NCBI GenBank assembly: GCA_965248495.1
Contig: CBDFJL010000003.1
Location: forward strand, 476,852-540,851
Origin: Dehalococcoidia bacterium
GTDB lineage: Bacteria > Chloroflexota > Dehalococcoidia > Lucifugimonadales > Australimonadaceae
Length of the DNA stretch: 64,000 nucleotides
Direction of reading: 5' to 3'
The notes beneath the pieces were generated by a model that ran no database searches, was not told the DNA's origin, and saw only the letters and a program-made list of their open reading frames with translations. The translations under genes and the position numbers were made by a program. Of the stretch, positions 41,957 through 43,970 are shown piece after piece; the first letter of the stretch is position 1, and each line of letters starts with the position of its first letter.

Positions 41957-42634
41957 GTGGCCCCGTTCGACGGCTTTCCCGCCGGCGCTCGCTCGGTACC
42001 CGTGCCGGCACCGCTGTTGGGCCAGCTCCTCGCCGAGGTCGAAGACCAGGCGGAGCTGAAGTGCACGTTGCGCTTCTTCTGGCACCTCGCGCAGCGGCAC
42101 GGCTTCGGCCGCCCGGTCCCGGAGGCGACCTTCGACGAGGACGGCGTGCTCCTCAGCGCTCTCGGCTCAGCCGATGCCGTGCGCCGGGGCCTCAGCCTCG
42201 CGGTGAGCCGAGGCACGCTACTCGCCGCGGCCGATGCGGCGGGCCACCGCGTCTACCTCGCGAATAGTCCCGATGGGCGACGTGCCGCCGAGGCGCTTGG
42301 GCCGGCGATTGAGCAGGGCGTGGGGCAAGGCGAACGCCCGGAAGCAGGCCCTCCGCCGGAGCGGCCGAACGTCTTCGAGCTCTACGAGACCAACATCGAG
42401 ATGCTGACGTACATGGTCGCCGAGCAGCTGCGCGACGCTGAACAGACCTACCCCGCCGAATGGATCGAGGCCGCGATACGGGAAGCGGTCGAAAACAATG
42501 CACGCAGCTGGCGCTACATTGACCGCGTTCTCGAGCGCTGGGCAAAGGAAGGACGAGGCCGTGGAGCGGATGGAAAGCCTGGGGGACATCCTCAAGCGCT
42601 TACAGCAGCAGAGTATCGGCGCCGTTCCCGCTGA
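41957..42634 (+). CDS. DnaD-domain (DnaB_2-type) replication protein
   Basis: The C-terminus NVFELYETNIEMLTYMVAEQLRDAEQTYPAEWIEAAIREAVENNARSWRYIDRVLERWAKEG fits the DnaD/DnaB(Bsu) C-terminal repeat (n.f..YE.nig.lt......i......e.i..Ai.eA...n.rs..Yi..IL..W...G). Starts with GTG. Confidence 0.7.
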   Translation: MAPFDGFPAGARSVPVPAPLLGQLLAEVEDQAELKCTLRFFWHLAQRHGFGRPVPEATFDEDGVLLSALGSADAVRRGLSLAVSRGTLLAAADAAGHRVYLANSPDGRRAAEALGPAIEQGVGQGERPEAGPPPERPNVFELYETNIEMLTYMVAEQLRDAEQTYPAEWIEAAIREAVENNARSWRYIDRVLERWAKEGRGRGADGKPGGHPQALTAAEYRRRSR

Positions 42635-43970
42635 GGCGCGGGCGCTTTTGGCGGGGGCGGAGATGGAGCCCGTCGTTCCACCGTGCCCCATCTGTGGCGG
42701 GCGCGGCTGGCTGCGGCGCGACGTTCCGCTGGGCGACTCCGAGTTCGGCCGGGCACAGCCCTGCACGTGCCAGCTCGACATGAGCGACGAGCAGCGCTCC
42801 GCACGGTTGCGCCGCTACTCCAACATGGGCGTGCTGGCCCAGGTCACCTTTACCGTGACGGAGCCCGATGGCCGCAGCACGACCGCCGAGGCCCGGGCCA
42901 TGTTCCACGCGTCGCTGGAGGCCGCCCGCGCATACGCCGAGGACCCGCAGGGCTGGCTCGTGCTGACCGGCGCGAGTGGGTCGGGGAAGACGCACCTCGC
43001 CGCGGCCATCGCCAACCGGTGCATGGAGCGGGGTCAGCCCATCTTCTTCGCCTTCGTCCCCGACCTGCTGGACCACCTTCGGGCGTCCTTCAACCCCGAG
43101 CACGAACTCTCCTACGACGAGCTCTTCGAGCAGGTCAAGTCCATCCCCATGCTGGTGCTGGATGACCTGGGCAGCCAAAGCGCGACGCCGTGGGCAAACG
43201 AGAAGCTCTTCCAAGTCCTGAACCACCGCTACGTCAGCGGCCTGCCGACCGTCGTCACCACGAACACTCCTTCCGAAAAGATGGATGAGCGCTCTCGCAG
43301 CCGCATCGAGGACGCGCGTACGTCTCGTATCCTAGACCTGGGTGTCGAGCGGGCTCGCGCTACCTCAGGCGTGGGTACGTTGGAGCCGGCGATGCGCCAG
43401 TCCATGACCTTCGAGAGCTTCCAGCCCGCAGGCCGCGGCGCCGACCGTGATGCGCGGGAGACCCTGGCCGGCTCACTCCAAATGGCGAGGGCCTACGCGG
43501 CCGACCCTGATGGCTGGCTGGTGCTGCTGGGCAACTCCGGCACCGGCAAGACCCACCTCGCCGTGGCCATCGCCAACCAGTGCATCGAGCGCGGTGACGA
43601 GGTGTTCTTCGCTTTCGTGCCGGACCTGCTCGACCATCTGCGCTACACGTTCAGTCCGGAGAGCCGCGTCACCTACGACGAGCTCTTCGAGCGGGTCAAG
43701 CGGGCACCCGTCTTGATCCTCGATGACCTGGGCTCCGAGACGACGACTCCATGGGCCTACGAAAAGCTGTACCAGATCATCGTCCAGCGCCACAACGCGC
43801 GTCGCCCGACCATCATCACCACGCGCAAGCTCCCTTCGGCGGCCGGCGACCCCATCGCATCGCGTCTGAACGACCCGCGCGTGGTGATGGTGATGCCCAT
43901 CGAGGCGCCGGACTTCCGGCAGGGCGGGGCCTCGGCCGGCAGCACGCCGAGCGAGCGGGGACGGCGCTAG
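42570..43970 (+). CDS. helicase-loader-like protein with N-terminal Cys motif and two tandem DnaC/IstB-type AAA+ modules
   Basis: CPICGGRGW...CTC is followed by [22 protein letters not shown]...[10 protein letters not shown]...VVTTN, and then again by [22 protein letters not shown]...[10 protein letters not shown]...IITTR. The start could instead be ATG 42663; ATG 42570 overlaps the upstream gene by 65 nt. Confidence 0.8.
   Translation: [466 protein letters not shown]

Follow-up and report, generated by a model that had tools for sequence, protein, structure and literature searches.

Helicase loading in bacteria is known from a few systems, namely DnaC, DnaI acting with DnaD and the Bacillus subtilis DnaB protein, lambda P and DciA, and these loaders are either single-module proteins or not ATPases; how many of them act on one DnaB is still under study. 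The present study concerns a stretch of 64,000 nucleotides (nt) from a Dehalococcoidia bacterium (GenBank assembly GCA_965248495.1, contig CBDFJL010000003.1, positions 476,852 to 540,851 of the forward strand), hereafter the window, in which a gene at 42570..43970 codes for a helicase loader of the DnaC/DnaI type with two AAA+ modules in a single chain. One AAA+ module per polypeptide is true of every characterised DnaC/DnaI-type member, and the characterised loaders matched in the Protein Data Bank (PDB), namely DnaC, DnaI and IstB, are all single-module proteins; the window loader, however, departs from this rule.

In Escherichia coli DnaC the catalytic residues are K112 (Walker A), E170 (Walker B), N203 (sensor I), R216 (Arg-coupler, at -4 from the finger), R220 (Arg finger of Box VII) and R237 (sensor II), and single-stranded DNA (ssDNA) is bound by the tetrad K143/F146/S177/Y179; each of the substitutions K112R, E170Q, N203A, R220D and R237D abolishes the ATPase activity, loading depends only partly on ATPase, and the N-terminal domain alone leads to about half of wild-type loading (PMC8213410). 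The residues taken for comparison from Staphylococcus aureus DnaI are K170, D225/D226, N260 (sensor I), R288 (Arg finger) and R304 (sensor II) (PMC4887207).

The gene and the parts of its product are as follows, with M1 and M2 denoting the two modules:

42570..43970, + strand: tandem-AAA+ DnaC/DnaI-type helicase loader, 466 residues plus stop, recognised by Pfam, NCBIfam, half-versus-half alignment and Foldseek
42570..42614, + strand: conserved N-terminal peptide, residues 1-15, kept in many homologues, including the three-module protein of locus L161 and the single-module protein P0444
42678..42839, + strand: N-terminal domain with four cysteines (Cys4, CxxC...CxC), residues 37-90, with C39/C42/C65/C67
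42840..43337, + strand: AAA+ module 1 (M1), residues 91-256, with K140, D198/D199, N232, R241 and R245, without a sensor-II Arg
43338..43403, + strand: inter-module linker, residues 257-278, without Cys, poorly conserved in sequence and fixed in spacing
43404..43925, + strand: AAA+ module 2 (M2), residues 279-452, with K327, D385/D386, R419, P428, R432 and R450 (APDFR)

The Pfam families IstB_IS21 (E-value 2.6e-37), Bac_DnaA and AAA each match the loader in two stretches, as does the NCBIfam model PRK08116 (227.9 bits against a cut-off of 189), and phrog_50, 'DnaC-like helicase loader', covers the chain from residue 39 onwards at an E-value of 1.9e-84. On aligning M1 with M2, 87 of 166 positions were found to be identical (52 %, E-value 2e-65), with 70.8 % identity at the DNA level over 336 nt. 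The Walker A motifs (GASGSGKT at residue 134, nt 42969, and GNSGTGKT at residue 321, nt 43530) are 561 nt apart and, like the Walker B motifs (MLVLDDLG at residue 194 and VLILDDLG at residue 381), they are intact in both modules; sensor I reads TTN in M1 (N232) and TTR in M2 (R419). The original prediction, made from the letters of the window without database searches, had proposed two DnaC/IstB-type modules in one chain along with the Cys motif, the intact Walker motifs, their spacing and the TTN/TTR difference, and in all these points it was correct. Its description of both modules as complete is valid for the folds, however M1 is without a sensor-II motif (APDYR) and M2 without the sensor-I Asn and the coupler.

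The conserved N-terminal peptide is followed by a variable linker (residues 16-36), the mean frequency of the top residue being 0.57 in the peptide and 0.29 in the linker, and the conservation of this peptide among homologues supports the start at 42570. The ATG has GGAG in front of it and the gene ends with a TAG stop at 43968-43970. Amongst the four cysteines C65 is invariant and C39, C42 and C67 are conserved in at least 90 % of the homologues; the domain, for which AlphaFold2 predicts two short strands plus helices, is presumed to bind Zn and to interact with the helicase. The N-terminal 98 residues of the loader found no sequence match in PDB even at E≤10, the DnaI N-domain included.

The AlphaFold2 model of the loader monomer, built from a 75-sequence alignment, has a mean predicted local distance difference test (pLDDT) value of 84.9, mostly above 85 in both modules, with disorder at residues 15-35, at residues 261-266 (pLDDT below 50) and in the C-terminal tail. 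Both modules have the initiator-clade AAA+ fold with a helical insertion (ISM) between Walker A and Walker B, and Foldseek searches of the PDB with these modules retrieved structures of DnaC, DnaI and IstB, namely 6QEM, 3ECC (template-modelling score TMt 0.76), 2W58 (0.71), 5HE8 (0.72), 5BQ5 (0.71) and 8Q4D. Proteins of the p97/Cdc48 type span both modules only loosely (TM 0.21-0.33, about 0.25; root-mean-square deviation 15-22 Å), and amongst the sequence and Foldseek matches in PDB there is no solved structure with a tandem loader architecture. A covalent tandem had been expected to hard-wire a dimer, however this was not borne out by AlphaFold, which models both modules with confidence but joins them by a disordered tether, the predicted template-modelling score (pTM) being 0.55.

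The tandem loader is typical of the phylum and not peculiar to the genome of the window. A protein search provided at least 8000 relatives, of which the best 120 (46-90 % identical, mostly 380-490 residues) were examined; with a hidden Markov model of the module, two modules were found in 119 and three in one, and the named relatives belong to Chloroflexota/Dehalococcoidia and are labelled 'ATP-binding protein' or (JGI) 'DnaC'. Using the most divergent tandem member (P0093) as seed, a second search led to 120 further proteins of 392-498 residues, 119 with two modules and one, a partial sequence (P0267), with three, the named ones being all from Anaerolineae or Chloroflexota. At least 585 stretches of one-genome-per-species GTDB contigs encode a relative, and the best 80 of these loci, complete chromosomes included, were tandem without exception, covering Dehalococcoidia, Dehalococcoidales, Anaerolineae, Anaerolineales, Ardenticatenales, Chloroflexia and Tepidiformaceae. 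Named genome matches are all from Chloroflexota save for one metagenome-assembled genome labelled 'Proteobacteria bacterium', which is taken to be mis-binned or mislabelled. Searches with tblastn matched 835 phage and 836 plasmid records, and no tandem form was seen amongst the 15 best of each, which span 530-770 nt, or amongst all 80 IMG/VR loci. Amongst the matches inspected the architecture is confined to this clade, a point that the original prediction had left to a survey of homologues.

In the window, the loader is part of a co-directional string of genes:

39890..40564, + strand: rplI, encoding ribosomal protein L9, at the head of the string, with Pfam Ribosomal_L9_N and L9_C
40577..41950, + strand: dnaB, replicative helicase of 457 residues, with Pfam DnaB (E-value 1.1e-26) and DnaB_C (E-value 6.4e-97)
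41957..42634, + strand: DnaD-type adaptor gene, 225 residues, with Pfam DnaB_2 and TIGR01446
43973..44389 (alternative start 44000), + strand: HIT-family gene following the loader, Pfam HIT at E-value 2.7e-8
44383..44772, + strand: crcB (fluoride channel), Pfam CRCB at E-value 1.9e-27

The predicted order and coordinates of dnaB, the DnaD-domain gene and the loader are confirmed. Gaps and overlaps of only a few nt had been described for the whole string, and this agrees with the 12 nt between rplI and dnaB, the 6 nt between dnaB and the DnaD-like gene, the 2 nt from the loader stop to the HIT ATG (43973) and the 7 nt by which crcB overlaps the HIT stop; the DnaD-like gene and the loader, however, overlap by 65 nt. 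This overlap (42570-42634, in different frames) is also seen in loci L001 and L003, most other Chloroflexota loci having a gap of about 10 nt, and suggests either that the DnaD-like protein was extended at its C-terminus in this lineage or that translation of the two genes is coupled. A terminator-like site is present at 39474-39486, just 5' of rplI and after purL, and within the rplI-crcB string such sites were not more frequent than in shuffled sequence. Scans of the operon for Rfam families, tRNAs, promoters and terminators gave nothing relevant, and no co-loader of the B. subtilis DnaB type was seen in the operon.

Across the 80 inspected loci, the DnaD-like gene stands immediately upstream of the loader in 77 and dnaB no more than 6 kb upstream in 73, usually with rplI before it; a HIT gene is found 3' of the loader in 19 of them and also in locus L162. 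According to the supplement of Brezellec 2016, dna[CI] occurs exactly once, and dciA not at all, in each cultured Chloroflexi genome, and the same study counts the Chloroflexi dna[CI] as one separate 'domestication', in which a loader gene was acquired from a phage. Considering the conserved synteny together with the single dna[CI] and the lack of dciA in the cultured genomes, the gene would be the resident loader gene of the phylum.

Alternatively, the locus might represent an assembly duplication, a fused gene call, an IS21 IstB helper or a prophage or plasmid replication module. The best Pfam model is indeed named IstB_IS21, single-module relatives lie on viral contigs or in a mobile-looking context (L081 and L164), and two homologues (P0362 and P0366) have near-identical modules and frameshift-like tails. 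Such an explanation is extremely improbable, since at the DNA level the modules of the window reach only 71 % identity and hundreds of independent assemblies, complete chromosomes included, have this architecture; moreover, no transposase adjoins the loader, IstA is not nearby, the rplI-dnaB and housekeeping synteny is kept and GC content is uniform across the loader region. The wider window is ordinary chromosome, with purL, a riboflavin operon, complex I, leuS, H+-pyrophosphatase (H+-PPase), SbcC and electron-transfer flavoprotein (ETF) genes. Assembly duplication, a pitfall that had been foreseen when the tandem was first proposed, is rejected on the 70.8 % identity of the halves and the recurrence across genomes, and an IstB or other mobile element is rejected on the chromosomal dnaB context and on the NCBIfam model IS21_help_AAA (NF038214), which scores 146.8 against a cut-off of 200. 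The metagenomic proteins P0362 and P0366 were set aside as three-module cases, as module 1 is repeated in them almost unchanged and their C-terminal tails are frameshift-like or themselves repeated; either assembly errors caused by the repeats or duplications of very recent date may lie behind this.

The product of the gene at 41957-42634 contains the C-terminal DDBH2 domain of the DnaD family, in agreement with the DnaB_2-type C-terminus claimed for it earlier. Pfam DnaB_2 (PF07261) matches at residues 140-199 (E-value 1.1e-11), TIGR01446 DnaD_dom scores 42.6 bits against a cut-off of 24.95, and phrog_186, 'DnaD-like helicase loader', matches at an E-value of 8.6e-14. The AlphaFold2 model (pLDDT 77.7) has a winged-helix-like domain at the N-terminus, joined by a disordered linker to a C-domain of four helices (DnaD/DDBH2, residues ~139-198), with pLDDT values of 83-96 in the N-terminal half (residues 21-110). 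Foldseek detected full-length DnaD (9a5c_B, E-value 7e-4) with the whole model and 2ZC2 (TMt 0.71, root-mean-square deviation 1.9 Å) as well as 2I5U with the C-domain, and the N-domain matched many winged helix-turn-helix proteins at weak E-values.

For analysis of the catalytic residues, 120 members of the subfamily of the window (Dehalococcoidia-type) and 120 members of an Anaerolineae-type subfamily were compared. The duplication is old, because orthologous modules are more alike (identity 56 % for M1-M1 and 63 % for M2-M2) than the two modules of one chain (M1-M2 identity 44 %, 38-57 % within one protein). A neighbour-joining tree of 170 columns gave bootstrap support (94 %) to the M2 clade only, the monophyly of M1 and the position of L081-L083 being without support. 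The spacing from Walker A to Walker A is 187 residues in 98 of 119 proteins of the subfamily of the window and 191 residues in 95 of 120 of the Anaerolineae type. The duplicated unit, which leaves out the Cys4 domain, opens with the '...TF' strand that precedes the AAA+ core.

Searching 1.84 billion representatives by phmmer, with module 2 as the only query, yielded 443 clusters at E≤1e-30, and amongst the best 150 clusters about 125 matched in two stretches, 16 in one, eight in three (several of these being split alignments) and one in four. Every inspected phage, plasmid and IMG/VR relative has one module. The closest single-module viral relative (L081) is 274 residues long and ~50 % identical, with the Cys4 domain and the motifs DLLDHLR and PWAxEKLYQ, and may be a phage relative of the loader found in Chloroflexota. 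On its 57.6-kb viral contig an AAA_25/RepA-like open reading frame (ORF) at 3529-4794 is followed by the loader at 4908-5732 and a DnaB-type helicase of its own at 6454-7920. Two other proteins have one module and the family N-terminus. The first (P0477) has an HTH_17 gene and dnaB in front of it and no called DnaD-like gene, a context that looks mobile; the second (P0444), which has HIT after it as in the window, comes from a contig of 1.46 kb and could reflect either a genuine deletion of M1 or a chimeric assembly, and is not relied on here.

Longer forms are also found. Locus L161 codes for a protein of 690 residues with the N-terminal peptide, the Cys4 domain and the modules M1-M2-M2', within an rplI-dnaB-dnaD-loader string. 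Here (5656-7728) the gene caller had begun at an internal Met (575 residues), and the full ORF of 690 residues carries the N-terminal peptide and Cys4; truncated gene calls probably explain many 'homologues' of 380-440 residues. The protein P0361 of locus L163 has 827 residues and four mutually divergent modules, and its gene comes after an intein-containing dnaB and a DnaD-like gene. The DnaB of this locus (2433-4259, 608 residues) matches PF14890 Intein_splicing.

Residues were mapped by alignments to DnaC and DnaI and by the R432-R450 spacing, which is 18 residues compared with 17 in E. coli DnaC and 16 in S. aureus DnaI. R245 and R432 sit in 'SR[IL]' motifs, and 'DPIASRL' of M2 aligns cleanly with 'ADLASRL' of Aquifex DnaC; in ungapped pairwise alignment with E. 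coli DnaC the register of finger and coupler in Box VII is ambiguous. The residues of the window loader and their occurrence in its subfamily are as follows:

Walker A Lys: M1 K140, M2 K327; in the subfamily 100 % in M1 and 100 % in M2
Walker B: M1 D198/D199, M2 D385/D386; second Asp in 110/120 (M1) and 120/120 (M2)
Sensor I: M1 N232 (TTN; aligned to E. coli DnaC N203), M2 R419 (TTR); in the subfamily S45/N30/A26/G13 (M1) and R93/N3 (M2)
Arg-coupler position: M1 R241, M2 P428; in the subfamily R107 (M1) and P109 (M2)
Box VII Arg: M1 R245, M2 R432; in the subfamily R100/K20 (M1) and R119 (M2)
Sensor-II Arg: M1 none, M2 R450; in the subfamily absent in 118 (M1) and present in 118 (M2)
ssDNA tetrad equivalents: M1 R171/F174/T206/W208, M2 R358/F361/T393/W395

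The tetrad equivalents are retained as conservative substitutions at 96 % or more in both modules of both subfamilies (R 120/120, F/Y in at least 119, T/S in at least 115, W in at least 119). M1 of the Anaerolineae type is fully canonical, with the sensor-I Asn in 118, the coupler Arg in 120, the finger Arg in 120 and the sensor-II Arg in 117, and in M2 the coupler (118), the finger (120) and the sensor-II Arg (99) accompany a sensor-I position of H49/A27/S27/T9/N4. In the four-module P0361, the first three modules are canonical (TTN, PDYR/PNFR) and the last alone is without both sensors. In these alignments every module retains the residues for ATP binding, Arg donation and ssDNA contact, and the site of the C-terminal module itself is almost always without the sensor-I Asn throughout the family. 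In the subfamily of the window, sensor II and sensor I of M1 and the coupler of M2 are eroded as well. The notion of one degenerate site, to which the TTN/TTR difference had given rise, holds in so far as the nucleotide sites are non-equivalent; the N232/R419 contrast, however, is not a rule of the family, M1 having Asn in only 30 of 120.

The sensor-I Arg (R419), unusual for AAA+ proteins, is kept in 93 of 120 members of the subfamily and in M2 and M2' of L161. It coincides with the loss of the coupler in M2 and with a conserved 'DPR' Arg five residues after Box VII, which occurs in both modules.

A C-terminal module that systematically lacks the sensor-I Asn and keeps the Box VII Arg could, instead of joining a hexameric spiral, be part of a closed, self-capping AAA+ dimer or short array, in which one module would act as Arg-finger donor, regulator or autoinhibitory lid that times hydrolysis and release. 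The four-module form, with its last module alone degenerate, fits such an arrangement, and the ATPase part might be regulatory in any case, given the half of wild-type loading obtained with the N-terminal domain of E. coli DnaC (PMC8213410). A mere structural cap, however, would not be expected to keep the Walker A Lys, Walker B and the full tetrad at about 100 %, as the degenerate module does, and we consider this possibility quite unlikely.

Taking these observations together, the locus probably encodes the resident helicase-loading module of Chloroflexota, composed of dnaB, a DnaD-type adaptor and a DnaC/DnaI-type loader with an old tandem duplication kept under selection, whose two modules are adjacent in one spiral. 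Given the fixed spacing and the retention of the Box VII, ssDNA-binding and ATP-binding residues, the modules of one chain are most likely neighbours; this adjacency is inferred, as AlphaFold predicts no defined interface. By analogy with the N-terminal domains of DnaC and DnaI, the Cys4 domain would dock on DnaB, and the two modules of each chain would sit side by side in an ATP-dependent, ssDNA-binding spiral by which the ring of DnaB is opened. A hexamer could then be served by fewer chains, in the simplest case three, with only every second AAA+ position tethered to the helicase. Each module would bind ATP and ssDNA and give its Box VII Arg to a neighbour, the sites being non-equivalent. 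As the sensor-I Asn is missing family-wide, the C-terminal module probably binds ATP without canonical hydrolysis. In the subfamily of the window, ATP binding may mainly drive assembly, and hydrolysis may be slow or limited to one class of site. As in Firmicutes, the DnaD-type protein may bring the complex to the origin or to sites of restart.

A more specific version of this arrangement, which we put forward tentatively as possible although short of probable, is a concatenated loader whose chains lie head-to-tail in a DnaC-like spiral, most simply three on a DnaB hexamer, such that competent and degenerate sites alternate and the C-terminal module serves mainly as an ATP-binding Arg-finger donor. 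The elements eroded together in the subfamily of the window would make up a single composite site, in cis and in trans, if Box VII of M2 faces the P-loop of M1; the joint loss of sensor I/II in M1 and of the coupler in M2 is consistent with such a facing and with head-to-tail alternation. If true, there would be three tethers for six ATPase positions, matching the trimer-of-dimers collar of DnaB, a new quaternary solution for bacterial helicase loading.

Several points weigh against the spiral interpretation as a whole. The AlphaFold monomer has no defined M1-M2 interface (pTM 0.55, disordered linker) and leaves the packing of the modules uninformed, and no sequence homology was detected between the Cys4 domain and the helicase-binding domains of DnaI or DnaC. 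The resident four-module loader of L163 does not suit a rule by which the number of modules per chain divides six. The co-erosion argument derives from essentially one evolutionary split. In the subfamily of the window neither site has the full canonical residue set, and because of this, and because N203A and R237D abolish the ATPase of E. coli DnaC, hydrolysis may be weak or may use non-canonical residues.

In an alternative model six chains are placed on the hexamer through six N-terminal domains, as with DnaC and DnaI, with the M1 spiral by DnaB and M2 either forming a second stacked or extended spiral (12 modules, resembling type-II AAA+ proteins or DnaA/DnaC filaments) or reaching DnaD, DnaA or more ssDNA. 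A flexible tether of about 20 residues and an undefined geometry between the modules would permit two tiers, each module has its own complete set of residues for oligomerisation and ssDNA binding, and a module number that ranges from one to four is easier to reconcile with an open filament of indefinite length than with a strict six; the tandem AAA+ proteins of the p97/Cdc48 type retrieved by Foldseek over both modules are also in line with it, at a TM of only about 0.25. However, homotypic tiers would unlink the loss of the M2 coupler from that of sensor I/II in M1, yet these losses co-occur in one subfamily, and to our knowledge stacked double rings are not known for initiator-clade AAA+ proteins. 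A 6:6 assembly of two tiers thus seems rather unlikely, and the co-erosion favours an alternating arrangement of M1 and M2 in one spiral over homotypic tiers.

The family to which the loader belongs is already catalogued and widespread, and two-domain matches are visible in domain databases, the genes being annotated merely as 'ATP-binding protein' or 'DnaC' in current genomes; the architecture, however, is apparently unstudied. In the literature, subscription-only papers not covered, we found no description of a tandem DnaC/DnaI loader, of a variable module number or of the degenerate-site pattern, so that the novelty proposed at the outset holds for the tandem architecture and not for the family. 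A whole phylum appears to use covalently concatenated loader modules that are systematically unequal in catalytic equipment, which may be regarded as a natural experiment in subunit concatenation on the number of ATP sites at which binding or hydrolysis is needed and on their order. The architecture predicts a loader:helicase stoichiometry and a tethering geometry unlike the 6:6 paradigm of DnaB-DnaC. The series from one module (viral/mobile) to two, three and four would record the remodelling of a phage-type loader after it became chromosomal, and DnaD-type adaptors would be a fixed part of chromosomal initiation outside Firmicutes.

Elsewhere in the window, GC content falls to 51-63 % at 7500-10000 compared with 67-72 % around it, a GC3-based gene map shows no typical ORF at 6.9-9.9 kb, and a DUF5343 ORF (7983-8801, minus strand) lies inside this low-GC stretch, which may be a horizontally acquired islet. 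The sole RNA gene detected in the 64 kb is a tRNA-Glu(CTC) at 60167-60243 on the minus strand. In an EF-G-like ORF at 53960-56494 (minus strand) the GTPase domain starts from residue 176 of the longest ORF, and the N-terminal extension is probably an over-extended ORF start and not real.

Amongst known systems, DnaC of E. coli and Aquifex shares with the window loader the initiator-clade fold (3ECC, TMt 0.76; 6QEL, profile E-value 4.5e-21), Walker A and B, the Box VII 'ASRL' Arg, tetrad equivalents and the partnership with DnaB. However, DnaC has one module per chain, six chains per DnaB hexamer and an N-terminal helical DnaB-binding segment without Cys4, whereas the window loader has two modules with uneven sensors and coupler, and it scores 118.7 with the NCBIfam DnaC equivalog against a cut-off of 357. 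DnaI with DnaD in B. subtilis and S. aureus resembles the pair in the window in its layout, having an N-terminal metal-binding domain followed by AAA+ and an adaptor of the DnaD family, and DnaI is also the best PDB sequence match of the loader (4M4W, E-value 7e-16; 2W58). Nevertheless DnaI is a single-module protein, its Zn site is of the Cys/His type (C67, C70, H84) with a spacing other than that of the window Cys4 (PMC1636449), and the DnaI equivalog gives 128.6 against a cut-off of 228.

IstB, the helper ATPase of IS21/IS5376, is a homologous AAA+ protein (5BQ5, TMt 0.71) with a single module, whereas the context in the window is a dnaB operon. RFC, ORC-Cdc6 and p97/NSF/ClpB offer an analogy only, in that modules of unequal catalytic competence work in one assembly and the type-II proteins also have two modules per chain; however, these proteins come from different clades, each module of RFC and ORC is a polypeptide of its own, the rings of type-II proteins are stacked, closed and substrate-threading, and there is no homology beyond the AAA+ core. 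The closest sequence family is that of the PRK08116/phrog_50 'DnaC-like' loaders from Clostridia-type chromosomes, phages and plasmids, whose match to the window loader includes the CxxC region and which are typically paired with a DnaD-domain gene, as in the window. The phage, plasmid and viral members inspected have one module, whereas the chromosomal form of Chloroflexota has two, and rarely three or four.

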